DNA of 64,000 bases from Candidatus Woesearchaeota archaeon. Lineage in GTDB: Archaea; Nanobdellota; Nanobdellia; Woesearchaeales; JACPBV01. The translations under genes were made by a program, and so were the position numbers. The notes under the pieces were generated by a model. The model searched no databases. It was not told where the DNA came from and worked only from the letters and a program-made list of their open reading frames with translations. Below, one piece after another: positions 1,133 through 63,743 of this stretch. The DNA lies in NCBI GenBank assembly GCA_016188175.1, contig JACPII010000002.1:4865-68864 (forward strand), read 5' to 3'. Each line of letters begins with the position of its first letter. Position 1 is the stretch's first letter.

Positions 1133-2437
1133 CTACGAAAATTTGCCTTTTTGCTTCGCCCAACTCTTCAGCCGTAATGCATTCAGCTTAATAAATCCGA
1201 CGGCATCGGTCTGGTCATAGCCGCCCAAAACATCCATGCTTGCGACCTTTTCATGGTAAAGAGATACGGGAGATGACCTTCCCGTTATAATAACGTTTCC
1301 TTTATAGAGTTTCAGGTTTACCGTTCCCGTAACATTCTCCTGCGCCTTGTCCATGACAAGCTTCAATAGCTCAAATTCGGGCGAATACCAAAACCCATTG
1401 TAGATGAGCGAAGCAAACTTGGGGATTAAGGAATCACGGATCTGCTTCACTTCCCTGTCCATCGTCAATCCTTCAATATCAAGGTGCGCCTGCATAAGCA
1501 CTGTCCCCGCAGGGGTTTCGTAAACCCCCCTTGATTTCATCCCGACAAAGCGATTTTCGACCAGGTCAACCCGGCCAATTCCATTTTTCCCGGCAATAGT
1601 GTTAAGATAGGTAAAAAGCTTCTGAGGGTCGGTGTAAGAAAGTTTATTTGTTTTGTCAATGAGCGTCACGGGAATCCCTTTTTCAAATTTGATAGACAGT
1701 TCGGTAGCCTTATCCGGAGCTTGTTCCGGGCTTGCGGTCATCTCAAACATCTCTTCCTTCGGCTCGAACGATGGATCTTCCAAAACTCCAGCCTCATAGC
1801 TGATGTGCATCAGGTTTGCATCTGAGCTGTAAGGCTTAGCTTGGGTCGCCTTGACCGGAATCCCGTTCTGCCCGCAAAAAGCGATCATATCCTTTCTCCC
1901 TTTGAACGCTGCAAGGAATTCCTTGTCTTTCCAGGGAGCGATGATTGTTGCATCCGGCAGAAGGGTGAGATACGCAAGCTCAAAACGCACCTGGTCGTTT
2001 CCTTTTCCTGTAGCCCCATGAGAAACAAAAGTTGTTTTCTCCTTCTTGGCTATCTCAACCTGTTTTTTGGCGATCAGCGGCCTTGCAAGAGAAGTCCCCA
2101 GAAGGTATTTGCCCTCGTACACAGCATTTGCCTTAAGGGCAGTAAAAACATAATTAGTGATAAACTCTTTCTTGAGGTCCTCGACGTACACCTTCGAAGC
2201 CCCGATCTTCAATGCTTTCTCTTTTGCAGCCTTAAAGTCCTCTTGCTGCCCAAGGTCGGCGATGTAGGCAACTGCTTCAAAGCCCTTGTCGATAAGCCAT
2301 TTCAGGATGACTGAAGTATCAAGGCCACCGGAATAGGCTAGTACTACTTTTTTGTTTGAAATGCAAACCACCCTTGCTTCATTTAGAAGAAGGTTTATAT
2401 ATAAAGGTATTGACCGAGCCCGGATAGAAATAGACAT
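1133..2437 (-). CDS. argG: Argininosuccinate synthase
   Basis: [20 protein letters not shown]-loop motif, full-length ~434 aa, in an arg cluster. Ends with tandem TAG TAG. Confidence 0.95.
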
Positions 2438-2456: not shown

Positions 2457-3299
2457 TTACACCAGCCCTTCCTTCTCCTCAAACCCCAGCGCCAGATTCA
2501 TATTCTGGACCGCCTGCCCTGATGCCCCCTTGACGAGATTATCCAGGACGGAAACAACAACGAGCTGGTTATTTTTGTCGATCTCAAACCCGCCGATTCG
2601 GCAAAAGTTGGTGTTCTGGACGCTTTTGATATCGGGAACCCCGTCCGTAACTATTTTTACAAAAGGCTTTCCCTCGTAATAACTCTCAAAGATTTGGATA
2701 ATCTTCTCTTTTGTCATTTTTTTTCCAAGCAGGATATGCGCCGTGCACATGATCCCCCTGAATGCCTGAAACACATGAGGCGTGAATGAGATTTTCGCCT
2801 TCAGAAACTGCTCAATCTCAGGCTTATGGCGGTGTTCGGTAAGCTTGTAGGCAACAACATTCCCCTGGAGCAGGGATGGATCCTTTGCATAAGCGCTCTC
2901 TTTCCCGGCCCCGCTCCAGCCGGAAATGCAGTCAAAGACAATGTATTTTGCAATCTTTTGGATGGGAAGCGAGCCAAGCAGGCAGGCGGTTGCATAACAG
3001 CCGGGATTTGCGATTATTCTGGCTTTCTTTATTTTCTCCCCATGCAGTTCAGGAAGCCCATACACTGCCGGATTTTTCTTGCCAGGAAATTTCGCCTGAT
3101 ATGTTGATTCGTAAGATTTTGGATGGGCAAAACGGAAGTCTGCGCTAAGGTCGATGATATGCGTGCAGGCTAGTTTCCCGGCGTACTCGAATGCAGCGGT
3201 AGGGGGGACTGCCAAGAAGATGCAATCCAGCCCCATCTTGTTTATTTCGGGAACTGAATAATTGGTGTACACCTCACTCCCCGCATATTCTGGATACAT
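2457..3299 (-). CDS. argC: N-acetyl-gamma-glutamyl-phosphate reductase (ArgC/LysY). The ORF as called is N-terminally truncated. The in-frame upstream codons (to ~3437) encode KRNVGIIGASGYTGFELIKIL (Rossmann motif) but contain no canonical start.
   Basis: ORF track plus manual translation of 3300-3476. Conserved catalytic region (NPGCYATA) in the called part. Confidence 0.85.
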   Translation of the reverse strand: MYPEYAGSEVYTNYSVPEINKMGLDCIFLAVPPTAAFEYAGKLACTHIIDLSADFRFAHPKSYESTYQAKFPGKKNPAVYGLPELHGEKIKKARIIANPGCYATACLLGSLPIQKIAKYIVFDCISGWSGAGKESAYAKDPSLLQGNVVAYKLTEHRHKPEIEQFLKAKISFTPHVFQAFRGIMCTAHILLGKKMTKEKIIQIFESYYEGKPFVKIVTDGVPDIKSVQNTNFCRIGGFEIDKNNQLVVVSVLDNLVKGASGQAVQNMNLALGFEEKEGLV

Positions 3300-3448
3300 C
3301 TCTTTTATTTTCTTCCCGGCATTGCCCGTGCTGTTAACAACTTTAAGGCTTACCCCTTTGTGTTTGGCCAGGATTTTAATAAGCTCAAAGCCCGTATATC
3401 CGGATGCCCCGATGATGCCGACGTTACGTTTTTCATTCTGCTTTCTCC

Positions 3449-3580
3449 GTATTTGTTTAGCACCTTCGAAATCCTAGACGATGAACCACAGGCGCTGCGT
3501 CCCCGTAAGGGACTTCCCCCCGCAACGCGCTCGCCGTCGATAGACAAAAGGATTTCGACCTTAGGGTGCTAAACAAATAC
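3449..3580 (+). mobile_element. Palindromic MITE-like element, family A-D copy A (TIR GTATTTGTTTAGCACC...GGTGCTAAACAAATAC, core CTGCGTCCCCGTAAGGGA). Fills the argD-argC intergenic spacer.
   Basis: Near-perfect ~40 bp terminal inverted repeats. About 90% identical in inverse orientation to 5943-6075. Confidence 0.6.
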
Positions 3581-3588
3581 CTCTCTCC

Positions 3589-4815
3589 TTATTCTGCGAC
3601 TGCCTCAAATGCCTGGTCAAGTATCTTTACGGCGATGTCCACTTCTTTCGTGCTGATGACTAGAGGCGGGAGAAAGCGCAGGTATACATCATTTACGCAG
3701 TTTACTAACAACCCGAGCTCAAGGCATTTCTCCGTAATTTTTCTATTTACGCAGTTTACTAACAACCCGAGCTCAAGGCATTTCTCCGTAATTTTTCTTC
3801 CAGGAATTTTCAATTTCATGCCAAGCATAAGCCCCATCCCGGAAACACTCTCGATGAACGGATATTTTTTCTTAAGCTGAGTGAGCTTTTCCTTGAAATA
3901 ATCCCCCGTTTTGGCTGCATTGCCCATAAGATTATGCTTCCTGATATATCCGATCGTCGCAAGCGCTGCCGCACAGCTGACGTTATTCCCGCCAAAGGTC
4001 GCTCCGTGGTCCCCGGCAGAAAAATCAATCCCTTTTTTTGCTATGCAGGCGCCAATAGGGATCCCATTTCCCAAGCCTTTCGCGGCGGTAACGATATCAG
4101 GAACAATGGCCTCGTGCTGGAAGCAAAAAAACTTTCCCGTCCTCCCATTTCCGGTCTGGACCTCATCAACGATCAGCAAAATATTGTGTTTTTTGCAGAT
4201 GCCCGAAACTTTTTTTAGGTAACCTTTTTCCGGAACTATAACCCCTGCTTCTCCCTGGATAGGCTCGATGATGGCAGCAGCGGTCTTTTCCGTAATCGCC
4301 ATTTCAATCGCACCGGCATCACCGTAAGGAACAAAAGAAAACCCGGGAACCAACGGCTCAAACTTTTTCTTAAATTTCTCTTTCCATGTCGCCGATAAGC
4401 TTCCAAAAGTCCTCCCATGGAATGCATGCTCGCAGCTTATGATGTCTGTTTTCCCGGTAAAAGCCCTTGCAAGCTTGAGCGCAGCTTCGTTCGCCTCCGT
4501 CCCCGAATTGCAGAAGAACGTTTTTTGAAGGCCCGAAAGTGCAGCAAGTTTTTTTGCCAGCTCAACCTGCGGCTTAGTGTAATAGAGATTAGTCACGTTG
4601 GTGACTTTTTTCACCTGCTGGGAAACAGCCCGAGAAACCTCAGCATTCCCGTGCCCGGCCGAAACAGTCGCAACCCCGCCGACGCAGTCAAGATATTTCT
4701 TTCCCTGGGAGTCCCAGACCCAAACCCCCTTTCCTTTTTCCAAAACAGCCGGATAACGGAGGTAACTCTGCATCAGATATTCTTTTTCCCCTTTAAATAT
4801 TGCATCCACGTCCAT
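3589..4815 (-). CDS. argD: Acetylornithine (or LysW-lysine) aminotransferase, class III PLP aminotransferase. Carries an internal in-frame 18-aa tandem duplication (RKITEKCLELGLLVNCVN x2).
   Basis: Class III aminotransferase motifs (GGVATVSAGHGN, PLP-Lys region DEVQTGNGRTG). Clustered with argC and argG. Confidence 0.9.
   Translation of the reverse strand: MDVDAIFKGEKEYLMQSYLRYPAVLEKGKGVWVWDSQGKKYLDCVGGVATVSAGHGNAEVSRAVSQQVKKVTNVTNLYYTKPQVELAKKLAALSGLQKTFFCNSGTEANEAALKLARAFTGKTDIISCEHAFHGRTFGSLSATWKEKFKKKFEPLVPGFSFVPYGDAGAIEMAITEKTAAAIIEPIQGEAGVIVPEKGYLKKVSGICKKHNILLIVDEVQTGNGRTGKFFCFQHEAIVPDIVTAAKGLGNGIPIGACIAKKGIDFSAGDHGATFGGNNVSCAAALATIGYIRKHNLMGNAAKTGDYFKEKLTQLKKKYPFIESVSGMGLMLGMKLKIPGRKITEKCLELGLLVNCVNRKITEKCLELGLLVNCVNDVYLRFLPPLVISTKEVDIAVKILDQAFEAVAE
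3691..3798. repeat. Perfect 54-bp tandem direct duplication (2 copies) inside the argD coding sequence
   Basis: 3691-3744 is identical to 3745-3798 (ATTTACGCAGTTTACTAACAACCCGAGCTCAAGGCATTTCTCCGTAATTTTTCT). Confidence 0.95.
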
Positions 4816-4897
4816 AAGGCAATTTACCCCAAAGGATTATATAAACCTATTGCCTGAAAGAAAACAACCTGGACAAGAATGTTTTTTTTGGGACAGA

Positions 4898-5902
4898 TTA
4901 AGAAAACCGCTTAAGTTCAGCAGTAACCCTTTCCTCAAAACCTTTTCCAAGGATACCATCGCCGATTGCATGAGAGAGATACTCCGAAATCGTTTTTTCC
5001 TGGACGGGAGTTAAGCCATACTCAAGCGGACGGGGGAGCTTTTTATCAGCGCCAAAAAGAACATGCATGGCATAGATTATTCCCTCGCGATACCTGCTTC
5101 CAGGATACAAAGATTGGATGGCATTCCATATGGGCAAGTTGAGGGATTGCATTTCTTGGTTATCATCCGCTGGAAGAAGTTGCAGCCTCTTAAACAAAAG
5201 AGGAACAACATTTGCCCCCGAAGGGACAAAGCCATCGCAGCCTTGTTGGGAAAAGTATAATGCATCCGTTTCACTGCCGACCCAAAGGAACTTTTGCCGC
5301 ATGTGTGCAATATGTAAAGCTTTTGAAGTATATTCTCTCGGATTTGAACTTTTCATCCCAATTATCCTGTCCAATCCCAACGCCTCAGAAAGTATACCTA
5401 GAACATACGATGTCCCGAAGAGCCTTTCAAACTCATACAATGCAATGGGCATCGTGGTTTTATCATGAACTTCTTTAACGTGATAAAGAACCTGCTCAGG
5501 TGTAAGGAAGAAATGTGGCGGAGGAGGTAAAACAGCAACATCAACCTCCCTTGTTTGTCCAAGAAATCCATCGATGTATTGGATAGTCTCCTCAGTCCCC
5601 CTTTGAGGAACACCTGCAAACACCAGCCCGTCCCGGCCCCTTCCAAGGTCTGATGCAAGCGCAATCAGCGACCTGCTCGTTCCTTCTGGCGCAACAGGCG
5701 CTGCTCCTGTCGTCGACCTTGCAAACACATGGAACCCATGAGAAAATGCCCTTTCAACAATCTCCCTTGCAACCCGGGAATCGAGCCCCTCACCGACTCT
5801 TTCCAGCGGCGTCGGAAGAGGCTGGATGATTGATGTTCCCTTTCCAAGAATTTCACGGATCTGCTCGAGAGATTTCCCCATAGGCATGGGATTAACGTTC
5901 AA
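4898..5902 (-). CDS. Dihydrodipicolinate synthase/N-acetylneuraminate lyase family class I aldolase (DapA-like)
   Basis: Schiff-base Lys region IIGMKSS and C-terminal GCDGFVPSGANVVP, matching the DapA-family pattern G-I/M-K-E/S ... GG.G..S..AN..P. Confidence 0.65.
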   Translation of the reverse strand: MNVNPMPMGKSLEQIREILGKGTSIIQPLPTPLERVGEGLDSRVAREIVERAFSHGFHVFARSTTGAAPVAPEGTSRSLIALASDLGRGRDGLVFAGVPQRGTEETIQYIDGFLGQTREVDVAVLPPPPHFFLTPEQVLYHVKEVHDKTTMPIALYEFERLFGTSYVLGILSEALGLDRIIGMKSSNPREYTSKALHIAHMRQKFLWVGSETDALYFSQQGCDGFVPSGANVVPLLFKRLQLLPADDNQEMQSLNLPIWNAIQSLYPGSRYREGIIYAMHVLFGADKKLPRPLEYGLTPVQEKTISEYLSHAIGDGILGKGFEERVTAELKRFS

Positions 5903-5942
5903 TTTTTAAGGATTATGTTTTGTAAAAAAATATCCTTTTTGT

Positions 5943-6075
5943 GTATTTGTTTAGCACCCTAAAGTCGAAATCCTTTCATCTACCGACGACGAGCGCGTCG
6001 CGGGGGGTTGTCCCTTACGGGGACGCAGCGCCTGCGGTGTATCGTCAAGGATTTCGAAGGTGCTAAACAAATACC
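5943..6075 (-). mobile_element. Palindromic MITE-like element, family A-D copy B (inverted relative to copy A)
   Basis: About 90% identity to the reverse complement of 3449-3580. Same TIRs. Confidence 0.6.
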
Positions 6076-6308
6076 TTTTTGTCAAAAACACCCCGCCCTA
6101 AAGCCCCAAAGGGATACCAGAAACGCAAAAGCGTTTCTCCGTAGGCAGGGCGTGTTTTTGAGCACTCAGAAATTGCCATCTTACTCCGGGCTAAAGCCCA
6201 GAGATTGCGATTGGCAATTTCTGTTGTTTCAATCATCTTTATTCTTACTAAAAAGTAGTTAATATATAGGAAGGTTTAAATATCCGACAAAGCTTCTGGC
6301 CGATTGCC

Positions 6309-8876
6309 ATGGGCTCCCCCCTTTCCCTTACACTGGACGACAAGCTTTCGATGCTCATTCATCGTGGATTTGATCGCCAGGAAGCGCTCGCTATTGTGGG
6401 ACAGCACCTCAAAGACAATACTTTCGACACAGGGCTGGACACCCTCTCAAGGGCGCTTGTCGTCGGAAAGGCTTTTGATAACGATGGGCATTGGAAAGGT
6501 TATATTCCTCTTGAAGATTTCAAACTTGTTCAAATTTTAGATAAAGTTGAAGGGAGGGATGGAAAGGGTTTGTATGACCAAACAGGCCGCCCAACCTCAC
6601 TTCTTCAAGAAGCCCGTGCAGGATACACAGGATTTAGGGAAAACCATCCGCAGGCAATAAAAAATGCAAAAATTGCCGCAGGGATTGCATTAGTTTTATG
6701 TGCTCAAGTAATTTCAGGTTGTGGAAATCCCCAGCAAAACAATGGCGATTCTTCCATTGATGCAGAAGCCCCTCCAGAAGCCCACTTTCCGGCTCAACTC
6801 TTACCGCCGGGCGGGGATTGGAAAACCTACCAGCTTCCGGGAATAGGTTTAGATGGGATCACTTCAGAAGAAAACCAAGCCCTTGGGCTGTTCTCATTGG
6901 TGGATACTCCCTCGCGACGAAAGATGGAAGGTGAATATCAGTATTTCATCGAGCAGTATGTTGTTAATGGCAAAGGCACAGATCATTTTCGGTTCAAGCT
7001 TTCCCATTGGGACAAAACAAAGGGCATTGAAGTTTTTGAGTTTGAGCCGCTGAATAGGGAAACCGTTGAGCGCCTGGAGCAAAAGCTCAGGGAAGAGGAA
7101 AAGAATCCCATCCCCGAGCAGCCGGGCGCCATCGGAGAAAAGAAAGAGGATGGCCAAAGTACCCGGCAGCAGGGAAATCTCCGTGACGAGGTCTTCAATC
7201 ACGGGGATGTTAAACCGGGAGAAGCAGACAAAACCAACCGGGAAGTCTTAGCTCCACATATCTATCGTGAAAGCCTCTTTAATGACCCGGGGATTATTTT
7301 AAAGGTCAGTGGCGCAATAAACGAGTTTCCTTATGATTTTTCTCCACTGGAAAGGCAAATTTCCTATGAGAAGGCGCTTAATCCGGGCCTGCCCGAGCAG
7401 CGGATAAGAAACTATTTTGGCAATCTTAGCAATAAGGTTGCCCATGCCCTGATAGGCATTTCCGGAAAGGCAACTCTGGATGATGCCGTTATAGAGCTTA
7501 AAAAAACAAGGGACGGAAAAATAGCTATAATCCGGACTATCGCCGAATCTCTCATCAGGCAAAATTGGGTTTATCGTCCGGTCGAAAAGCTTGGAGACTC
7601 ATTTAATCCAGGCCATGTCAGGGACAATTATGTTTATTCAGACTGCAATACCTGCCTCCAGGATGCATATCTTGAAGTTGCAAGGAACTTAGGGCTGCCC
7701 TTATTTTTTGTGTGTGCGCCGAATCACGCGTACGGCCTCTGGAAAGACAAGTTTCACTCAATTGAGGTTGAGGCAACAGCCTCAAGAGCAAAGAAGTACC
7801 GGGAAGAGACAGATCAAGAAGGCAATACCAAAGTAGTTGAATTGCACCAGGATGTTCCGGATTATGACCGCCTCACTTCCGCCCTTGGAACCCATCACTC
7901 CGACAGTAGGCTCACCTCCCGCGGGGAGAAGCGTGTCCAGACAGGCGCATGGTTTTCTCCCGTAACAGAAAGCCCCCATCTTGATGAGATAATCCGGCTT
8001 TCCCTAAACTCCGACAGGCTGGAAAAATTTTACCGCCAGCTTGAGGAAAACCCGATGGTAATTGCTGAGATAATGAAGATTACTGATGGAGATTCTAAGG
8101 TTGGATATAGAAGCACAAACCCATGGGTGATCGATAATGTGCATGAAAGGTTAAAGGCTGCAATTGAGGCATCTCTTGAGGTTGGAGCTCCCATCCTCGC
8201 CAGAAAGGCAACAGATTTTCTTGAAAAATATTTAAAAAAGCATAATGTCAGTTTTATGGAGGATGAAAATAATATCCCGCTCCTAAGGCGAAGGATCTAC
8301 TCATTGGAAAACCCCCGGGACCTTGCCGCGAAGCTCAACACCGTCGATGAGCGCATTTATGATGGCAGGGGCCTGCGGGAAACCCTTGAAGAAAAAAAGA
8401 AAGATTATCAGGCAAGGTATAATGCTGCCGCAAGGGCAAACAACTTTACCCCTTTTTTAGAATTTTTGGTCCAGGAAACGGGGGAGAGCGCAGCATGGGT
8501 GCCGTTGGCTGGAGTGATGGGCCAATATCTCCAGAATAACAACCCCCGGGAAGCAGACGAACTGGCTGAGAAAGGACGGAAAAAAATAACTGAAATAGTC
8601 CAGGGAATTGCGGATGAAGCTGATAAACATGATGAAGGGACACCCGAAAATGATGTTGCCAGTTATGTTGCAAATAACATTGTGAATATGCTCCTGGGAA
8701 AAAGGTTCCGTTCTGCCTTAAGAACGGGCCCATGGGAGGATTTGGGAATTCCGCAGGAAGAATGGGCTGCCTACAATAAGATTTACCGGCAATATGAAGA
8801 CTTCCAACAGACGGCTTACAACCTGTCAAGGCTCCTCGTCAGTGAGTTAAAAGTAAAATTCCAAGGCCAAGAATAA
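6309..8876 (+). CDS. Large hypothetical membrane-anchored protein (855 aa). It has a hydrophobic segment plus lipobox-like ISGC at residues ~125-140 and a possible transglutaminase-like Cys/His/Asp core (DCNTC...NHAYGLW...EVEAT).
   Basis: ORF track, long ORF with coding-like composition. The motif resemblance is only from memory. Confidence 0.55.
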   Translation: MGSPLSLTLDDKLSMLIHRGFDRQEALAIVGQHLKDNTFDTGLDTLSRALVVGKAFDNDGHWKGYIPLEDFKLVQILDKVEGRDGKGLYDQTGRPTSLLQEARAGYTGFRENHPQAIKNAKIAAGIALVLCAQVISGCGNPQQNNGDSSIDAEAPPEAHFPAQLLPPGGDWKTYQLPGIGLDGITSEENQALGLFSLVDTPSRRKMEGEYQYFIEQYVVNGKGTDHFRFKLSHWDKTKGIEVFEFEPLNRETVERLEQKLREEEKNPIPEQPGAIGEKKEDGQSTRQQGNLRDEVFNHGDVKPGEADKTNREVLAPHIYRESLFNDPGIILKVSGAINEFPYDFSPLERQISYEKALNPGLPEQRIRNYFGNLSNKVAHALIGISGKATLDDAVIELKKTRDGKIAIIRTIAESLIRQNWVYRPVEKLGDSFNPGHVRDNYVYSDCNTCLQDAYLEVARNLGLPLFFVCAPNHAYGLWKDKFHSIEVEATASRAKKYREETDQEGNTKVVELHQDVPDYDRLTSALGTHHSDSRLTSRGEKRVQTGAWFSPVTESPHLDEIIRLSLNSDRLEKFYRQLEENPMVIAEIMKITDGDSKVGYRSTNPWVIDNVHERLKAAIEASLEVGAPILARKATDFLEKYLKKHNVSFMEDENNIPLLRRRIYSLENPRDLAAKLNTVDERIYDGRGLRETLEEKKKDYQARYNAAARANNFTPFLEFLVQETGESAAWVPLAGVMGQYLQNNNPREADELAEKGRKKITEIVQGIADEADKHDEGTPENDVASYVANNIVNMLLGKRFRSALRTGPWEDLGIPQEEWAAYNKIYRQYEDFQQTAYNLSRLLVSELKVKFQGQE

Positions 8877-11477: not shown

Positions 11478-12110
11478 CGTTAGTCAGCGGTTAGTCGCAA
11501 TGCAGCCTTCTCAAGAAAGGAGCATCATGAAGGGGAGCTATTTCATTTATAAAAGTATCGAAGAAAAAAATCACCCCGAGCTAACAAGGTAATGATTGCG
11601 GTTGGCTTTCCGGATATTGCCGGGCAGTAAGTCGCGCAAATGAGATATTGTCAAGGCACCCCGGCAGAAAAAAGACTCCGGCGGGTGCTGGACAGTAAAA
11701 GCAGAATCTGCAGGCAAGGAGATTAATTTCCGTAAGTGGATATCCTTGCCCATATTGGCGGACTTCAACAGAAATCCGACACCTCCCGTCAAAGACGGGG
11801 GGGATTGCTCGCCCTCCGTTGCGAAGCAACCGGAACGCTGGATTATCCCTCCGGTCGCTCGGTCGGATTCAAAGAAATGTACGTATTTCTTGAACACGAA
11901 ATTCTTAAGGAATTTCGTTGTTTCTGAGAATAAAGATATTCCCGCTGCATTTCCAGCAGGTTTACACCATCAGTTAAAAACTGATGGAATATCCTTATTC
12001 AACAATGATCATCCGAATATTAAAGTCCGCGGCTATAACGCTTGAGAATGATAAAAAACGCTTTTTTGCCGATATACTTCTTCTGAGCATCCAGCTTCGC
12101 GGGCTTCGGC

Positions 12111-12428: not shown

Positions 12429-12523
12429 GGGCTCGTAGCTCAGCCTGGTAGAGCACCTGGAGGGACGGAACCCTGGTGAAGCTTTTAACCAGGTCGTCGC
12501 GCGTTCGAATCGCGTCGGGCCCA
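12429..12523 (+). tRNA. tRNA-Lys(UUU) with a ~21-nt intron at a non-canonical position (immediately 5' of the anticodon loop). Mature length 74 nt.
   Basis: Manual fold. Acceptor GGGCUCG/CGGGCCC, D arm GCUC/GAGC with G18G19, T arm GCGCG-UUCGAAU-CGCGU. Removing AGGGACGGAACCCUGGUGAAG leaves anticodon loop CUUUUAA. Confidence 0.7.
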
Positions 12524-20797: not shown

Positions 20798-20829
20798 TGA
20801 GAAAAGGTCAGATGATAAAACATACGAGG

Positions 20830-20913
20830 GTTGTTCGTAGCTTGTTTTTCCACGGGAAAAACAAAGCATACTCACGTTGTTCGTAGCTTGTTTTTCCACG
20901 GGAAAAACAAAGC
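20830..20913 (+). repeat. Tandem duplicated 38-bp hairpin unit (GTTGTTCGTAGCTTGTTTTTCCACGGGAAAAACAAAGC x2, 8-bp spacer) between nusA and rps12
   Basis: Copies at 20830-20867 and 20876-20913. Each folds into a ~12-bp stem with a T-rich 5' arm. It is followed by a TATA-like TTTAAAAA at 20915-20922. Confidence 0.85.
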
Positions 20914-29763: not shown

Positions 29764-29995
29764 GTAATTAGTCAGGAGCCTGAAGTTTTGGTTTTGACAT
29801 TCCTATTTATCCGGTCGGGAAACCCAACAACAATGGCGAGGCGAGGTCGGGGCCGCCCTCCTCCTGCAAGGCAGGAACGCTAGATTCTCCTCCGTCCGAA
29901 GGACCGGGCTCACCCCTCCGGGGTGACCGAGCAGGGCAAATCCGAGCGAAGCGAGGATTTGACCGTCGAGCCCATTGTTGTTGTTGTTGGGTTTC
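29764..29995 (+). repeat. Repeat family E copy 1. Structured ~200 bp element with an internal TIR pair (CGGGAAACCCAACAACAATGGC / GCCATTGTTGTTGTTGTTGGGTTTC) and four internal hairpins. Left border of the island.
   Basis: 29764-29961 is ~95% identical to 41338-41543 in direct orientation. Confidence 0.8.
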
Positions 29996-30073
29996 TTGGT
30001 TAAGCCAATTCAGCCGGCTAACCTATTACAAAAGAACAATAACTATAAATATACTCAGCGATTACTTTTGACG

Positions 30074-41337: not shown

Positions 41338-41543
41338 GTAATTAGTCAGGAGCCTGAAGTTTTGGTTTTGACATTTCTACTTATCCGGTCAGGAAACCCA
41401 ATAACAATGGCGAGGCGAGGTCGGGGCCGCCCTCCTCCTGCAAGGCAGGAACGCTAGATTCTCCTCCGTCCGAAGGACCGGAACACTACGCTCACCCCTC
41501 CGGGGTGACCGAGCAGGGCAAATCCGAGCGTAGCGAGGATTTG
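41338..41543 (+). repeat. Repeat family E copy 2 (lacks the right TIR, has a 8-nt insertion). Right border of the island.
   Basis: Direct repeat of 29764-29961. Confidence 0.8.
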
Positions 41544-41645
41544 GGCTTTGAATGCGTCCATTCCATCCGGCCTTTGACTTGTGGTGTCGGATTTCTTTTG
41601 AAAACCCCCTAAATTTATATACACCTTTATTCCCCTTCCCCAACT

Positions 41646-44402
41646 ATGAAAAGTCCCAGCAAGCCCCAGATCATCGTAACAAGCGCATTGCCCTACGCGA
41701 ACGGCCCCATTCACGTAGGCCACCTTGTCGAATATATCCAGACAGACGCCTATGTAAGATTCCTCAAGCTCACCGGCGAAAACGCGCTTTACTGCTGCGC
41801 CGACGACACCCACGGAACCCCCATCCAGATCCTTGCAGAAAAAGAAGGCATCCTTCCGGAACAGCTGATCCAGAGGTACCATCAGGAGCACCTGAGGGAT
41901 TTCACTTCCTTCTCCATTGAATTCGACTCCTATTATTCGACGAACAGCAGCGAAAACAAGCAGCTCAGCGACCTGTTCTTTGAGCGCCTGAAAAAGAAAA
42001 AACTCATCTACACAAAAGAAGTCGAGCTCTCTTACTGCAGCCGATGCAATAGATTCCTTCCGGACAGGTATATCAAGGGCAAATGCCCAAAATGCAGCGC
42101 TCCTGACCAGTATGGGGATGTGTGCGAGCAATGCAACTCCACCCACGCAACGACCGACCTTGTTGACCCCTACTGCACCGTCTGTGGAACTCCCCCGGCA
42201 AAAAAGAGATCGAGCCATTATTTCTTCAGGCTCAGCTCATTTGCAGGATTCCTCAAAAGATGGTTTGCATCAAATAAAAGCCTCCAGCCGGAGATCAAGC
42301 ATTACCTCGAAAACTGGATCAAGGAAGGCCTCCAGGACTGGGACATCTCAAGAGACGGACCTTACTTTGGGTTCAAGATTCCCGGCGAAGAGGATAAATA
42401 TTATTATGTCTGGCTCGACGCCCCCATAGGATATATCTCAAGCTTCACTCACGCGATAGGCAATGACATCAAACAGGGGGAAAAGGGATGGAACAGCTCA
42501 ACGATTACCCATTTTATCGGTAAAGATATCATCTACTTCCACTTCTTGTTCTGGCCGGCTATGCTCGAAGCAGCAGGGTTCAAGCTTCCGGAAACCATCG
42601 TCGTCCATGGTTTTCTCACGGTAAACGGCGAAAAGATGTCCAAGAGCAGAGGCACATTCTTCACCGCAGAGGAATTCGCGAGCAAATACCCGCCGGAATT
42701 CCTCAGGTTCTATTACGCGAAGTCCTTGAGCAAGAAACTGGCAGACATCAACCTGGACTTTAAGGACTTCTACGAGGCTATCAACAATGAATTGGTCGGC
42801 AACATCGCCAATTACTGTTACCGGGCGCTGTCCTTCACCAACAGATTCCTCAATTCCGAGGTTGGGGAAAAAGCCAGGGATCCGAAGCTGGAAAAGACAA
42901 TATTGGAAAAAGCCGAAAAGATCAGGGGCGCCTATGCATCGTTCAACTTCAGCGAGGCAGTTAAGGAAATACTCGCCATCGCAGACCTGGGAAACCAATA
43001 TTTCCAGAAGGCCGAGCCCTGGAAGCTCGTGAAAGAAGATAAGGTGTCAGCCCAGCAAGCCGTGGCGTTGAACCTCAACATCGTAAAGATCCTTTCCATC
43101 CTGCTCGCTCCGATACTGCCGGCCTTCGCCAAAGAGCTCCAAAGCCAGCTCGGCATTGACAGATCATCCTGGAAAGACATCAATTTCACATTTGAAAACA
43201 AGACCATCGGCGATGCAAAGATTGTCTTGAACAAGATAGATGCAGAAGCCCCAGCCCTGGAGAAGAAAGAGCCCCGTAAGGAAATAAAAGTATCGACTGA
43301 GCCAGAAGCGAAAGCTCTGGGCATAAAGGTTGTCTGGGCAAGGATCGATGATGTTAATATCAAAAACAAGCACGAAGGTTTGGAGAGATATAAGAAAGTC
43401 ATCATTGAAGAAATAAAAAGTAAAGGTCTCTTGAACATCCCCTTCATCAAGGGGTATCATGACCTCTACGGCAGGTGCAATGTGTCCGATGGTGAAACTC
43501 CGCCGGAATACCTCCTGCGCCTCATCAAGGAAAAAGGAAGGCTTCCTTCTATCAATACAGCAGTAGACGCATACAACCTTGTCAGCCTGAAATACGCCCT
43601 TTCCTTGGGTGCCCACGATATCAGCAAGATACAAGGTAACGTTTCCATGAAAGTTTCTTCGGGCGGTGAAGAGTTCATCCCCTTGGGTTCAAAAGAGCCG
43701 GTACAAGTAAAGAAAGGAGAATATGTTTGCGCGGATGAAGAGCACGTCCTCTGCTGGCTTGATATCAAGCAGGGGATGTACACGCCGGTAGCCGCAAACA
43801 CAAAAAGCATCCTTCTGTATGCCCAGGGAAATAAGAACACCCCTGAAGATTCTCTAAGAAAATCGGTCGAGGAAGCCTGCAATCTTATTACAAAATACTG
43901 CGGAGGAGAATATGTGATCCTTTCCGAAAAGGAAGAATCTGCCCGTTTCCCGCTCAACCTCAAGGTCGGCAAAATAATTGGCGTCAAAGACCATCCTGAC
44001 GCGGAAAAGCTTTACATCCTGCAGGTCGACTTAGGAAACGAAAAAAGGCAGCTGGTTGCCGGATTGAAGGGCTATTACCCGAAAGAAGCCCTGCTCAACA
44101 AAAAAATAATCGTAGTTGCAAACCTGAAGCCGGCAAAATTAAGGGGCATCCTCAGCGACGGCATGCTCCTGGCAGCAGATGACGGAAAAACGGTTGAAGT
44201 GCTCCACCCGGAAGGAAACCCCGGAGATAAAGTCACCTGCGGGGATGCAGAAAACAGCACAGAAACGGTAACGTTTGAGGACTTTATGAAATCAACAATC
44301 GTAGTCAAGGATCGTCATGTCGTTTGCGATGGAAAGCCGTTGGACGTCAAGGGAAGATTGGTAAGTGTCAATAAAACGGGAGACGGGGCGAAAGTTCGAT
44401 AA
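41646..44402 (+). CDS. metG: Methionyl-tRNA synthetase. The core is followed by an inserted B3/4 (PheT editing-domain-like) domain and a C-terminal EMAP/Trbp111-type tRNA-binding domain, that is, a YtpR-like module fused to MetRS.
   Basis: HIGH (PYANGPIHVGH), KMSKS, Zn knuckles CSRC/CPKC. The B3/4 consensus (VDayN...HAhD...GE.f..L....AD....G......T) and the tRNA_bind motif (VGKIIGVKDHPDAEKLYILQVDLG) match from memory. Confidence 0.93.
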   Translation: MKSPSKPQIIVTSALPYANGPIHVGHLVEYIQTDAYVRFLKLTGENALYCCADDTHGTPIQILAEKEGILPEQLIQRYHQEHLRDFTSFSIEFDSYYSTNSSENKQLSDLFFERLKKKKLIYTKEVELSYCSRCNRFLPDRYIKGKCPKCSAPDQYGDVCEQCNSTHATTDLVDPYCTVCGTPPAKKRSSHYFFRLSSFAGFLKRWFASNKSLQPEIKHYLENWIKEGLQDWDISRDGPYFGFKIPGEEDKYYYVWLDAPIGYISSFTHAIGNDIKQGEKGWNSSTITHFIGKDIIYFHFLFWPAMLEAAGFKLPETIVVHGFLTVNGEKMSKSRGTFFTAEEFASKYPPEFLRFYYAKSLSKKLADINLDFKDFYEAINNELVGNIANYCYRALSFTNRFLNSEVGEKARDPKLEKTILEKAEKIRGAYASFNFSEAVKEILAIADLGNQYFQKAEPWKLVKEDKVSAQQAVALNLNIVKILSILLAPILPAFAKELQSQLGIDRSSWKDINFTFENKTIGDAKIVLNKIDAEAPALEKKEPRKEIKVSTEPEAKALGIKVVWARIDDVNIKNKHEGLERYKKVIIEEIKSKGLLNIPFIKGYHDLYGRCNVSDGETPPEYLLRLIKEKGRLPSINTAVDAYNLVSLKYALSLGAHDISKIQGNVSMKVSSGGEEFIPLGSKEPVQVKKGEYVCADEEHVLCWLDIKQGMYTPVAANTKSILLYAQGNKNTPEDSLRKSVEEACNLITKYCGGEYVILSEKEESARFPLNLKVGKIIGVKDHPDAEKLYILQVDLGNEKRQLVAGLKGYYPKEALLNKKIIVVANLKPAKLRGILSDGMLLAADDGKTVEVLHPEGNPGDKVTCGDAENSTETVTFEDFMKSTIVVKDRHVVCDGKPLDVKGRLVSVNKTGDGAKVR

Positions 44403-44412
44403 CAACCAGTAT

Positions 44413-44611
44413 GTATTAAGCTCCTATCGGAGCGGCTCTGCAATCTTCAAAACTCCCGATGGATTGTACGATGGCCCTGCGTCCCCGTAAGGGAAGGCGA
44501 AAAGTTCCGGTGCCTTTGGCACGGAGGGCGACCCCCGCGACGGTCTTGTTGTTTTCATCAATGGAGTTTTGACCTTAGGATGGCAGAGCCGCACTTAACG
44601 GAGCTTAATAC
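44413..44611 (+). mobile_element. MITE-like element, family A-D copy C (TIR GTATTAAGCTCCTATCGGAGCGGCTCTGC / GCAGAGCCGCACTTAACGGAGCTTAATAC)
   Basis: Terminal inverted repeats. Shares a core with copies A and B and 62337-62603. Confidence 0.6.
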
Positions 44612-44621
44612 ATGCACAACC

Positions 44622-45100
44622 ATGGTAAAAATCCAACTCCCGGTAGAGCACGAGATCAGCCTCTGGCTTGACACCTATGACGATATTTTCTCAGACTTTG
44701 ACCCGCGGCCTTATTCCGAACGCGCTCTCTCCGGCTTAAGCTCCTCCTTCCCGAAACCCAGAGAAACAGCGCCCATGAGTCGACCATCAAGCATCGCTTA
44801 AAGGAGCATTTCCAGAAGCACAACCGGGAGTTCAAGCGAAGAAGGAAAGAAATTGCGCTTCAGGGGGTTGCATTTGTCATCCTGGGAGTAGCCCTCATGT
44901 TCATCGCCTCCCTCATCCTGTTCAAAACAAGCGAAGACAGCCTAGGCAGGAGCTTCCTTATCGTTCTTCTGGAGCCCGCCGGATGGTTCCTCTTCTGGGA
45001 AGGCCTCAATCTCGTCATCTTTGAATCAAAGAAGATCCAGCCGGACTATCTTTTCTATGACAAGATGAGCAGGAGCCAGACGCAGTTTAATACCTATTAA
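44622..45100 (+). pseudogene. Frameshifted (or mis-sequenced) gene for a small membrane protein. The N-terminal part in frame 0 (44622-44801) and the C-terminal part in frame +2 (44702-45100, two TM helices) overlap. One extra A in the AAA run at 44764-44766 fuses them.
   Basis: Manual three-frame translation. Both parts have coding-like composition, and the second has no start of its own until 44897. Confidence 0.4.
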
Positions 45101-52462: not shown

Positions 52463-52469
52463 CAAAAAC

Positions 52470-52520
52470 CACCATCCTGGAAAGAAGAACAGTAAAAAAA
52501 CACCATCCTGGAAAGAAGAA
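52470..52520. repeat. 20-bp perfect direct repeat x2 (CACCATCCTGGAAAGAAGAA at 52470-52489 and 52501-52520) in the korA-korB spacer
   Basis: Read directly from the sequence. Confidence 0.9.
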
Positions 52521-52532
52521 AAGCCATGTTCC

Positions 52533-61321: not shown

Positions 61322-62314
61322 CTATTCCGGCGTGGAACCAACCTCAAGGCAGATGTCAATAACTTTTGGTGAATGGGTAAGTTCCCCAAGAGAGGCCACA
61401 TCGATTCCACAACCTGTATAATCAGCAACATTCGTTTGGGTTATCCCTCCCGACGCTTCAAGAAGCAGCCATGGGTAGAGCCCTTTCTCCTGCAGCAAAC
61501 GCACAATACCTTTAAGGCTTTCCGGAGGGATATTATCCAGGAGAAGTAACACTGGGACTTGCAGCTTATCTTTCACCCGGGCCAGTTCTGACGCTGCAAA
61601 AAGGGCTTCCTCTCCCGAATTGACTTCAACCTCGAAAAAAAGTGATGGTGCCATTCCAGCCCTTAAGATAGACCTATCGACGAAATCATGAAGGCTTTGT
61701 TTCAGATGCTCTTTCCCAAGCAATGAAAGATGGTTATCCTTCAGCAACACCCCATCCCACAGTCCAAGGCGATGGGTAAGCCCGCCTCCGCAATACACAG
61801 CCTTCTTGTCGAGATATCCGAGGGGCGTCTTCCTCGTCGCAGCGACAAAAACCTCGTCTTTTACATTATTAATCACCGATGATGTTAACGTTGCAATGCC
61901 GCACATCCTTTGGAGGATATCTAAAACCATCCGCTCCAAAAAGAGGATTGTTGAGGCACTTCCTTCTATCTTTATCATGCTCGTCCCCGGAAATATCTTG
62001 ACCCCATCACCGATCCGTTCAAAAACCTTTATCCCGAAGCGTTCGAAGATATAGCTTGCCTCTTCAACCCCAGAGGAAACCCCCTCTGCCTTTGAGAGTA
62101 TGTTCCCGGAGCATTGCTTCTCCCCAAGGCAGGTAAGCTGGGTAGTGACGTCTCCTCTGCCACCCGCACCCTTCTCAAAATGTATCCGTTCGACAACAAA
62201 CCGGTCAATCCATTCTTTGTAGAAACTCTCCGAAAGAGACAGCAAATTGCCGTGCTGCAGCGCCCTAACCACATCCTCCCTCCTCCCCATACCATCATGG
62301 AAAAACCGGCCCAT
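61322..62314 (-). CDS. nadC: Nicotinate-nucleotide (quinolinate) phosphoribosyltransferase, decarboxylating
   Basis: QPRTase fold sequence, pairing with nadB. Confidence 0.85.
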   Translation of the reverse strand: MGRFFHDGMGRREDVVRALQHGNLLSLSESFYKEWIDRFVVERIHFEKGAGGRGDVTTQLTCLGEKQCSGNILSKAEGVSSGVEEASYIFERFGIKVFERIGDGVKIFPGTSMIKIEGSASTILFLERMVLDILQRMCGIATLTSSVINNVKDEVFVAATRKTPLGYLDKKAVYCGGGLTHRLGLWDGVLLKDNHLSLLGKEHLKQSLHDFVDRSILRAGMAPSLFFEVEVNSGEEALFAASELARVKDKLQVPVLLLLDNIPPESLKGIVRLLQEKGLYPWLLLEASGGITQTNVADYTGCGIDVASLGELTHSPKVIDICLEVGSTPE

Positions 62315-62336
62315 TAATAATCCTTGCTTTTTCCGT

Positions 62337-62603
62337 GTGTATTAAGCTCCTATCGGAGCGGCTCTGCAATCTTCAAAACTCTTAATGTGTTTCAAGATAG
62401 CCCTGCGTCCCCGTAAGGGAAGGCGAAATGTTCCGGTGCCTTCGGCACGGAGGGCGACCCCCGCGACGGTCTGGCTGTTTTTTTCCAAAGACACAAATAT
62501 GTATACCCAATTGTTGTGTCTTTCGATATAGCAGGTGAAATTTTGCATGATTAATTTTGTCACCTGCTATAGGATGGCAGAGCCGCACTTAACGGGGCTT
62601 AAT
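62337..62603 (+). mobile_element. MITE-like element, family A-D copy D. Like copy C but with an ~80-bp internal insert made of two perfect hairpins (AAAGACACAA/TTGTGTCTTT and ATAGCAGGTGA/TCACCTGCTAT).
   Basis: TIRs and core are ~90% identical to 44413-44611. Confidence 0.6.
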
Positions 62604-62651
62604 ACATACCTTTTTCCGAAAAAGGATATGACAGGAATCATTAAATAATCA

Positions 62652-63743
62652 ATGAAGTTCTTTAGTAGAATGGACTCCCCATTCTTTCAAATAACCGAAG
62701 CTCTCAAGGAGGCCCTCAAAGGGCAGGATGATGAGAGTTCTCATTCCCCCGCCGGCCAATTCCCTTTGCTCGATAAAGACTGTTTCCACCTGATTGATTC
62801 GGCCACTGGCTTGGGTCCAGTAAAGATTGCATTTGTTGACGGGGGCAATGCAGAGATAATTGCTTCAGCAAATTTCTCCCTGCATGCCGTCAACCTAGCC
62901 CGTTGTATATATTCGGGGCCAAAAAAGATAGGGACAGCTTCAAGATCAGGATATATCCTTATCACGGCAAAGAGCCTCTCCGGCAAACTTTTTTATGAAG
63001 CAAACTTTTTCGGATACCCCCTATCAAAGGTCAGCATCGATGCTTCCCATCCTTCTATTGCCATAGGTTTCCAGCGTCCCTCCCCCGGAGCTTTAGCTTC
63101 GCCACTAAGGAAAGCGTTGGAACTTAGCCTTGCAGCGGACATGGCCCAACAGTTAGAGGATGGATCATGGATTGCGCTGGATGGAGATTTTTCAACTCCA
63201 ACTCCTTTTGAACGGGAAGCACTCAACAATCTTATCGATGCCTCTTCAGAAAGGAATATTGGCTGCCTTGCCCTCGCAAAGACAAGTGACCTCCTTTCAG
63301 GCAGGGGAGATGCGCTCATTCCATTGATAAAAGAGATATCCCCCAAACAACAGCCTTGGTTTTACGCACCTATCCCGCCAGCCCACAAAACCATCCCCGG
63401 GATGATAACCGCCGTTGCATCACTCCATAAAAGGCCATCCCACTGCTTCAAGCTCGAGGTGATTGTTCCAAAAGCAAAACCAAGCGCTGGACCCGGCATC
63501 GATCCTGAACTCAAAAACCTCAATCCCCTTATGAAAAGCCTTGTTGAAAATTCGAAAGATTCCGTCTTTCTCGGCTACCCTTACGGCTTCATTGAGGCCG
63601 ACCAGCTTGCAAGGGTCTCCAATCAGGAGAAAGGCTACCAAAAGACAAAACTCCTCGCAGCCTTGGGAAAAAACTTTCCGGAAATAAACGACTACCTTGC
63701 AACAAAAGACGCACATGCGATCCTCGACAGGATGCGGTTCTGA
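62652..63743 (+). CDS. Hypothetical protein, possibly a NurA-like (RNase H-fold) nuclease
   Basis: KIAFVDGGNAEII resembles the NurA motif I. Weak call. Confidence 0.35.
   Translation: MKFFSRMDSPFFQITEALKEALKGQDDESSHSPAGQFPLLDKDCFHLIDSATGLGPVKIAFVDGGNAEIIASANFSLHAVNLARCIYSGPKKIGTASRSGYILITAKSLSGKLFYEANFFGYPLSKVSIDASHPSIAIGFQRPSPGALASPLRKALELSLAADMAQQLEDGSWIALDGDFSTPTPFEREALNNLIDASSERNIGCLALAKTSDLLSGRGDALIPLIKEISPKQQPWFYAPIPPAHKTIPGMITAVASLHKRPSHCFKLEVIVPKAKPSAGPGIDPELKNLNPLMKSLVENSKDSVFLGYPYGFIEADQLARVSNQEKGYQKTKLLAALGKNFPEINDYLATKDAHAILDRMRF

Follow-up and report, generated by a model that had tools for sequence, protein, structure and literature searches.

The window considered here, 64,000 nucleotides of Woesearchaeota DNA (positions 4,865 to 68,864 of contig JACPII010000002.1), carries four copies, A to D, of a palindromic non-coding element. 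We interpret these as four independent insertions of non-autonomous DNA transposons, that is, type II MITEs (miniature transposable elements bearing inverted repeats), with a folded core that is under selection, and we assign this interpretation a probability of roughly 85%. The pattern of conservation is the reverse of that in an ordinary MITE: the centre is kept and the ends are interchangeable. The 33-nt centre is approximately 95% identical across metagenome-assembled genomes of 37-69% GC, whereas the arms of different subfamilies share almost no sequence and yet stay self-complementary. Several unrelated types of terminal sequence surround this one core.

Each copy forms a long imperfect hairpin (coordinates are given in Table 1). 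The copies have no coding capacity, and the open reading frames (ORFs) that cross them are due to chance only. Copies A and B, both 132 nt long, are 91% complementary as inverted copies. They start with GTATTTGTTTAGCACC and finish with its reverse complement, a pattern with four matches in the window where 0.33 are expected. The terminal helix of each consists of 16 perfect base pairs, and both fold with z scores of -7 to -9 relative to dinucleotide shuffles, on both strands. Copies C and D constitute a second subfamily with GTATGTATTAAGCTCC-type ends, terminal inverted repeats (TIRs) of 12-16 bp with at most one mismatch, and 90% identity across the 5' 147 nt. In the 3' inner arm of D, about 95 nt have been inserted or substituted (62480-62572). 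An 18-mer, CTGCGTCCCCGTAAGGGA, is exact in all four copies; 0.05 matches are expected by chance, and allowing up to three mismatches adds no match in the window. A covariance-model scan of the 64 kb (full model, filters off) returned A, B, C and D and no fifth copy.

An earlier note on this DNA had proposed a MITE-like family with four palindromic copies, all in intergenic junctions. The 18-mer and the covariance scan confirm the four copies as non-random, and the intergenic positions and the approximately 90% identity of A and B in opposite orientation are borne out. Its boundaries were correct for A; those of the other copies needed revision (it had ended B at 6075 and placed C at 44413-44611 and D at 62337-62603). 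Inverted repeats are present, as it stated, but they are built of a 16-bp perfect helix, a 5-6 nt bulge in one arm and a second helix of 10-11 bp, rather than of an imperfect repeat of about 40 bp. The sub-terminal motif that it considered common to all copies is the same in A and C (GACCTTAGG), occurs as a variant in B (GACTTTAGG) and has been lost from D, whose 3' arm holds the inserted or replaced segment. It used the shared core as the signature of the family. The core is indeed shared; what the note missed is that this is the most conserved and covarying part, around which the termini can be exchanged.

Signatures of mobility are evident in the flanks. Every copy in the window has its own target-site duplication (Table 1). 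In 36 related copies, the sequences on either side of the outermost inverted repeat were compared by script, and exact duplications of at least 8 bp were identified in at least 16 of them (chance expectation approximately 1e-4 per copy). Duplications are 8 bp long with GTAT/GTAA-type (GTAWKT) ends and 9 bp long with GG-type ends (GGCTCTG..., GGCTTC..., GGTCGC...). Across the family, copies are about 120-275 nt long, most have TIRs, and all are intergenic in the genome and metagenome loci, as judged from crude ORF calls. In orthologous genes of different metagenome-assembled genomes (MAGs), the element is not at the same site. The mobile, MITE-like character proposed earlier is thus upheld by the TIRs, by the separate duplications and by dozens of additional copies at non-orthologous intergenic sites; these lie in many genomes and metagenomes, mostly with exact 8-9 bp duplications. 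The elements are neither limited to these four copies nor conserved in synteny, the pattern that the earlier note had named as refuting mobility.

Because A and B each have a matched duplication and their outer flanks (CTTTCTCC and CTTTTTGT) differ, they represent independent insertions. A composite transposon bounded by A and B was rejected, as each copy has its own duplication and the outer flanks do not carry one shared pair. The intact duplications also indicate that there has been neither composite movement nor net inversion of the intervening segment since insertion, so the suggestion that A and B mediate inversion of the argD/dapA segment is unsupported. Recombination between these 132-bp repeats of 91% identity is possible in principle, and no sign of it was detected in the data. 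To judge from the TIRs and the duplications, a transposase acting in trans would recognize the short TIRs and make staggered cuts. Such cuts would generate the 8-bp duplications at GTAWKT-type ends and the 9-bp duplications at GG-type ends, and the probable targets are AT-rich intergenic DNA.

The wider distribution was determined with the exact 18-mer, in one genome per prokaryotic species and in metagenome and viral contigs. The genome scan returned 40 loci, 37 of which contain a full element; the other three (Streptomyces, Rossellomorea and Omnitrophota) are bare chance matches. Labels of the 37 are Woesearchaeota, Nanobdellota or unclassified archaeon in 35 cases and Methanosarcinales in two, and at these two loci the neighbouring proteins are Woesearchaeota-like. 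Elements were identified at 24 of 29 metagenome loci, and there were no matches in the viral contigs searched. The family is high-copy and widespread in this lineage, occurring in at least 15 Woesearchaeota/Nanobdellota MAGs with GC contents of 37-69%. In genome loci totalling 321 kb, a covariance model seeded with 14 copies of approximately 132 nt identified 53 copies on the sense strand, about 15 of them without the exact 18-mer; it gave 28 matches in the metagenome loci. Copies of the MAG CSMAG_1005 are 90-95% identical to each other. Density reaches three copies per 8 kb (locus L021) and is roughly one per 10-16 kb, in agreement with a survey in which a Woesearchaea genome, at 105 conserved MITEs per Mb, is reported among the most MITE-dense of archaea (PMC11602168). 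The literature searched contained no account of the present family. An exact protein look-up for empty insertion sites returned only two short argG contigs, and none for argD or the DHDPS-like gene.

Some loci have unusual arrangements. Two full copies in opposite orientation, separated by 5 nt, are present in L060 (1467-1598 and 1604-1735). A head-to-tail array of 4.5 units of 129 nt (95% identity, 67% GC) occupies positions 1-576 of L067 (GOS contig AACY023842657.1). Each unit includes the core, the arms pair poorly, and the period is a multiple of three, with several frames open. L052 (3840-4000, minus strand) has a distant relative with GTACGTATTAAG-type ends and the core-like sequence UGUGG-UCCCG-CCCCGUAAGGGAC-GUCCCCUCC-CACA. 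As this sequence escapes both covariance models, the family must be wider than sampled.

The core forms an asymmetric apical domain of approximately 42 nt, 5'-NNNC UGC GUCCC(CGUAA)GGGAC AA CCCCCC GCR AC GNNN-3', and the near-invariant consensus of the centre can also be written NNNC-UGCG-UCCCCGUAAGGGAC-AA-CCCCCC-GCR-AC-GNNN. Adjoining the centre are a second conserved helix (CUUCRAAAY/RUUUYGA) and then a bulge, GAC-YNNAKG, that is present in the 3' arm only. RNAalifold predicted 39 pairs from 14 seed sequences, and compensatory changes occur in 18 of these pairs. In the alignment of 52 copies, standard pairs fill 93.3% of the cells, compared with 75.3% after shuffling of the partners and 37-42% after a shift of the partners by 1-3 columns (slid controls). 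Double-sided changes were found in 32 of the 39 pairs, and six of the seven pairs of helix 4 covary. The covariation score is 0.454 (0.158 in shuffles, none of 500 of which reaches the observed score, and 0.06-0.09 in the slid controls), in an alignment that is fitted to the model and for arms that are inverted repeats in DNA as well. Covariation beyond that of phylogenetic and alignment controls is the generic mark of a conserved structured RNA, and with these reservations the pairs here show it. Because the arms are also DNA inverted repeats, covariation in the arms alone is weak evidence, and the apex is the decisive part.

Changes within the apex are varied. The closing helix occurs in nine versions (GCGC/GCGC, GCUC/GAGC, GUCC/GGAC, GAGC/GCUC, ACGC/GCGU, GUGC/GCAC, GCCC/GGGC, GGUC/GACC and AUGC/GCAU). 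The inner helix is found as UGCG/CGCG, UGCG/CGCA, UGUG/CACG, UGUG/CACA, UAUG/CAUA or UGAC/GUCA, and the apical hairpin as GUCCC/GGGAC, GUUCC/GGAAC and forms with U.G. One to three extra, independent hairpins are present in C, D, L032, L049, L053 and L059, and only at the junction of GGGA(C) and the C-run. Copy C has a 37-nt hairpin insert at this variable site (GGGA / C-run junction); C and D carry one unit each, and L032 (2773-3041) has three tandem hairpin units of 33 nt. By analogy, insertion of hairpins at one site resembles the variable regions of structured RNAs. Among the copies of a single MAG, the core and the 3' half are conserved, and hypervariability is seen in the linker and the 5' internal loop. 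In the folding models the G-run can pair with two conserved C-runs, one 5' and one 3', so that the apical domain may be bistable.

Core and arms were consistently found together. A search by arms alone found 39 arm pairs, and the core is present in 39 of 39. A core-only model gave 80 matches, none of them outside an element.

The ends of the elements also occur with other contents. At L015 (2847-3078), A/B-like ends (GTATTTGTTTAGC...GCTAAACAAATA) enclose an unrelated interior of 200 nt. A second MITE family at 29764-30040 of the window has GTAAT-type ends (GTAATTAGTCAGG.../...CTAACCTATTAC). It is flanked by an exact duplication of 8 bp (AAAAGAAC), and its interior, which is rich in GC and in hairpins, is unrelated to the core. 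Other copies of this second family are present at 41338-41545, where the 3' end is apparently truncated, and, in part, at 11750-11870. As the same or similar termini accompany other cargo, the core is probably not required for transposition, and comparison of these sequences suggests that the termini are probably the determinant of mobility.

The enzyme responsible was sought in several ways. All-against-all BLAST of 230 ORFs revealed no multicopy protein, and no transposase was found among the 25 commonest Pfam families of 128 ORFs, a listing that a single transposase would escape. No unit resembling an insertion sequence (IS) was detected among long-range inverted repeats 600-3500 bp apart. 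When the loci were scanned with 12 terminus types for additional ends, no autonomous partner was found; the solo matches were the other MITE in L015 and a chance match beside an aRF1 gene. Enzymes of the IS256 or ISL3 type would suit duplications of 8-9 bp and GG ends, which provides a lead rather than a result.

We infer that the core is a folded single strand that is maintained by purifying selection and carried as transposon cargo. As the acting form, we slightly prefer RNA over single-stranded DNA. At one pair of the inner helices, U.G is the majority state (32 of 52 copies), and it occurs in 10 of 52 copies at another. Since U.G would be a C.A mismatch on the opposite strand, the core-sense strand is favoured. 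The core would act as RNA transcribed from this strand or reached by read-through, more plausibly as a binding or processing module than as a transposition signal. A switch is also conceivable, since the G-run can pair with either of two C-runs. That the apical domain constitutes a new class of functional folded nucleic acid of DPANN archaea (RNA, or else single-stranded DNA), dispersed on interchangeable MITE arms and serving in protein binding, processing or switching, is a tentative proposal that we consider possible but less likely than not.

Several observations weigh against parts of this interpretation. Orientation relative to flanking and downstream genes is the same in 38 cases and opposite in 26, which is not significant; the bias of a first set (32 versus 17) was not sustained in the metagenome set. 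The lack of bias argues against a role via co-transcription with a neighbouring gene. In the outer arms, G.U (26) and A.C (21) are nearly symmetric, as in the evolution of double-stranded DNA. In isolation, the core does not exceed shuffled sequences in stability, and for A and B it is the antisense strand that gives the slightly better fold. Most copies were retrieved via the core, which inflates its apparent conservation, a bias that the approximately 15 secondary copies and the arm-only search lessen but do not eliminate. Covariation of terminal repeats can also arise by amplification of master copies with matched ends. Finally, no transposase or autonomous partner with these ends was identified in approximately 470 kb of related DNA, so the case for mobilization in trans comes from the TIRs and duplications only.

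One alternative is that the family is an ordinary MITE without a functional core, its apparent conservation being due to recent spread, horizontally or in bursts, and to core-based retrieval. The 90-95% identity within CSMAG_1005 does indicate recent bursts, 37 of the first 52 copies were found via the exact core 18-mer, and the absence of orientation bias is as expected. We nevertheless consider this explanation unlikely. The arms are nearly unrelated around a centre that is conserved across MAGs of 37-69% GC, and old, diverged arms around an unchanged centre cannot be explained by recent spread. Changes in the core are mainly compensatory, insertions are confined to one site, and the copies found without a core search all keep the core. 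A more serious alternative, which we regard as credible but rather improbable, is that the core acts at the level of DNA, as a site for transposase or a host protein or as a single-stranded hairpin or cruciform, and so raises transposition or retention. This would account for the constant location inside a transposon, the lack of gene-orientation bias, the good folding of both strands and the symmetric evolution of the outer arms, and the tandem units of L067 and the head-to-head copies of L060 resemble abutted-end intermediates of copy-out/paste-in insertion sequences. It is difficult to reconcile with MITEs that have the same termini and other cargo, as their transposase does not need the core. 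A double-stranded protein site would not give compensatory changes, and one strand is favoured by the U.G wobble that most copies have.

A circular-RNA module or small self-cleaving ribozyme, with multimers cut to units as in retrozymes and satellites, is suggested by the compact junction with many invariant unpaired nucleotides, the single variable hairpin site and the L067 array of core-bearing units. It is very improbable, as no hammerhead, twister, pistol, hatchet, HDV or hairpin model matched even at E<=10, the TIRs and 8-9 bp duplications are those of DNA transposition rather than retroposition, CUGAUGA is unconserved and a single tandem array was seen. The location of A within a likely argD-argC-argG operon, directly before the ribosome-binding site of argC, could be taken to indicate a non-mobile regulatory or structural RNA (an attenuator or terminator) of the arg/dap genes. 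This reading is refuted by the target duplications at every copy and by the non-syntenic distribution: C lies next to metG and D next to nadC, the neighbours at other loci are unrelated, and A is antisense to the arg transcript.

The selected folded core remains the preferred reading, and it corresponds to no RNA class that we compared. At the gathering threshold, Rfam 15 identified only tRNA in the whole window, and a permissive Rfam search (E<=10) gave nothing relevant for A, C and a 3-kb region; the matches of A and C were noise from miRNA-like hairpins, none above 17 bits. Inspection by eye did not support a kink-turn, C/D box or H/ACA assignment (the GAC-YNNAKG bulge is without tandem G.A pairs, and UGAUGA is found in one subfamily only). 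A hammerhead was rejected because CUGAUGA is not conserved and is confined to one subfamily, a bulge-helix-bulge splicing motif because there are no opposed 3-nt bulges, and a triplex because strand polarity is wrong.

Published hallmarks of MITEs include a length below 500 bp, absence of coding sequence, TIRs, direct repeats of 7-9 bp, multiple copies, insertion into AT-rich intergenic DNA and a stable stem-loop predicted for the transcript (PMC10969869). The Woesearchaeota family has the length and lack of coding capacity, the TIRs, the target duplications and the multiple copies at non-orthologous sites. In size, TIRs, duplications, copy number, AT-rich intergenic habit and predicted stem-loop it is like the prokaryotic type II MITEs (SM elements of Sulfolobus, QMITE2 of Coxiella and Correia elements of Neisseria). 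In ordinary MITEs, however, the termini are conserved and the interior drifts, whereas here unrelated termini with 8- or 9-bp duplications surround a near-invariant, strand-asymmetric and covarying centre that is shared across species. Unlike ordinary MITEs, the family has no known parent IS. The automated catalogue of MITEs cited above covers prokaryotes and viruses, while the present family has no copy in the viral contigs searched; as far as a term search of its main text extends, that catalogue does not describe a core, structure or covariation (PMC11602168).

There is also a likeness to ERIC/IRU, REP/BIME and REPIN elements, which are dispersed intergenic imperfect palindromes with sequence and hairpin shared across species, and which can affect mRNA stability or bind host proteins. 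REPINs, however, are moved by RAYT (HUH) enzymes without target duplication, and ERIC elements have no demonstrated current mobility, whereas this family has clear TIRs and duplications and occurs in DPANN archaea. Membership in REP/REPIN was rejected because of the 8-9 bp duplications and the anatomy of a single long hairpin (no RAYT gene was seen, although no search aimed at one was made), and derivation from IS200/IS605 (PATE) because perfect TIRs and duplications are present. In function, the closest analogues are ERIC and Correia elements, conserved intergenic palindromes that act in transcripts. Ribozyme-bearing satellites and retrozymes are alike in having a compact junction in a rod-like repeat, and in the one tandem array (L067), a resemblance only. 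They differ in that the insertion signature here is that of a DNA transposon and no known ribozyme model matches.

Table 1. Element copies, their apical domains and target-site duplications, and adjacent genes in the window.
Feature	Position	Strand	Description
Copy A	3449-3580	+ (core sense)	132 nt; argD-argC spacer; antisense to the probable arg transcript; covariance model 133 bits
Copy B	5943-6074	- (core sense)	132 nt; between the DHDPS-family gene and a + strand gene at 6309; 135.6 bits
Copy C	44409-44615	+	207 nt; GTATGTATTAAGCTCC-type termini, additional helix; 88.8 bits
Copy D	62335-62609	+	275 nt; subfamily of C; between the nadC start and a gene at 62652
Apical domain of A	3490-3531	+	Closing helix GCGC/GCGC, helix UGC/GCA, hairpin GUCCC-CGUAA-GGGAC, unpaired UUCCCCCC run
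Apical domain of B	5992-6033	-	
Apical domain of C	44472-44546	+	
Apical domain of D	62398-62472	+	
Duplication at A	3441-3448 / 3581-3588		CTTTCTCC / CTCTCTCC; 7/8 matching
Duplication at B	5935-5942 and 6075-6082		CTTTTTGT; exact, 8 bp
Duplication at C	44402-44408 and 44616-44622		ACAACCA; exact, 7 bp
Duplication at D	62327-62334 and 62610-62617		CTTTTTCC; exact, 8 bp
argG	1133-2437	-	Pfam
argC, C-terminal part	2457-3299	-	Pfam
argD-like class-III aminotransferase	3589-4815	-	Pfam; stop at 3589
DHDPS-family protein	4898-5902	-	Pfam, weak match; start at 5902
metG	41646-44402	+	Pfam
nadC	61322-62314	-	Pfam; start at 62314

The genes adjacent to the copies are given in Table 1. Copy A occupies the whole spacer between argD and argC, B sits in a divergent intergenic region, C begins 6 nt past the metG stop codon and D begins 20 nt upstream of the nadC start codon. 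A was previously thought to cover the start of argC. That claim fails: the sole argC ATG (3436-3434) and the GGAG before it lie outside A, 12 nt away. The GIIGASGYTG motif of the 5' translation stays in frame up to copy A, and the ATG is one base out of frame with the NVGIIGASGYTG frame, at an A5 run (3427-3433). A run of A6 at this position would give MKKRNVGIIG. Either the frameshift is genuine or the break is an error that arose in sequencing or assembly. On the gene strand, the 8-bp target duplicated by A, GGAGA(G/A)AG, is a Shine-Dalgarno-like region. Most likely, argC is expressed by read-through from argD, and argD, argC and argG form one transcript to which A is antisense. The interior of argD includes a perfect 54-nt tandem duplication (3691-3798), in frame, that repeats 18 residues (ITEKCLELGLLVNCVNRK).

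Other repeats were identified beside the elements. In three unrelated loci (window 6083-6230, L003 at approximately 5900-6045 and L059 at approximately 960-1060), a MITE copy is immediately adjoined by an element of two hairpins, GUCAAAAACAC...GUGUUUUUGAGCAC followed by CAGAAAU...AUUUCUG, whose loops are of the CUAAAG type and which has no Rfam match. A hairpin repeat, GGACACAAAAAAAGCAG...CTGCTTTTTTTCGTG, with loops CCUAAAGG and CUUAAAGG (L021 1380-1518, L010 1-140 and L025 1-135), is nested in one MITE copy and abuts two others of the same MAG. Also present in the window are a tRNA gene with a 28-nt intron (12429-12523; 47 bits with Rfam), which identifies the DNA as archaeal and was missed by ARAGORN, and short tandem duplications at 20817-20908 (two units of 46 nt, 89% identity) and 52464-52523 (two units of 29-31 nt).

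In summary, the family is best regarded as a kind of MITE in which a conserved and covarying cargo persists longer than the ends that surround it. MITEs are usually viewed as decaying transposon skeletons in which the ends alone matter, and the pattern found here is the opposite. In practical terms, these repeats break short-read assemblies of Woesearchaeota genomes, and, as the argD-argC case illustrates, a copy may be misread as a regulatory site of one particular gene. At least two classes of ends carry the core, and it occurs in many species of an archaeal lineage that is genome-reduced and little understood. If the core acts on DNA, it would indicate an unrecognized requirement of an archaeal transposition system. 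If the core is a functional RNA, it would be among the first lineage-wide non-coding RNA motifs for DPANN archaea, and an RNA module that is dispersed as transposon cargo.

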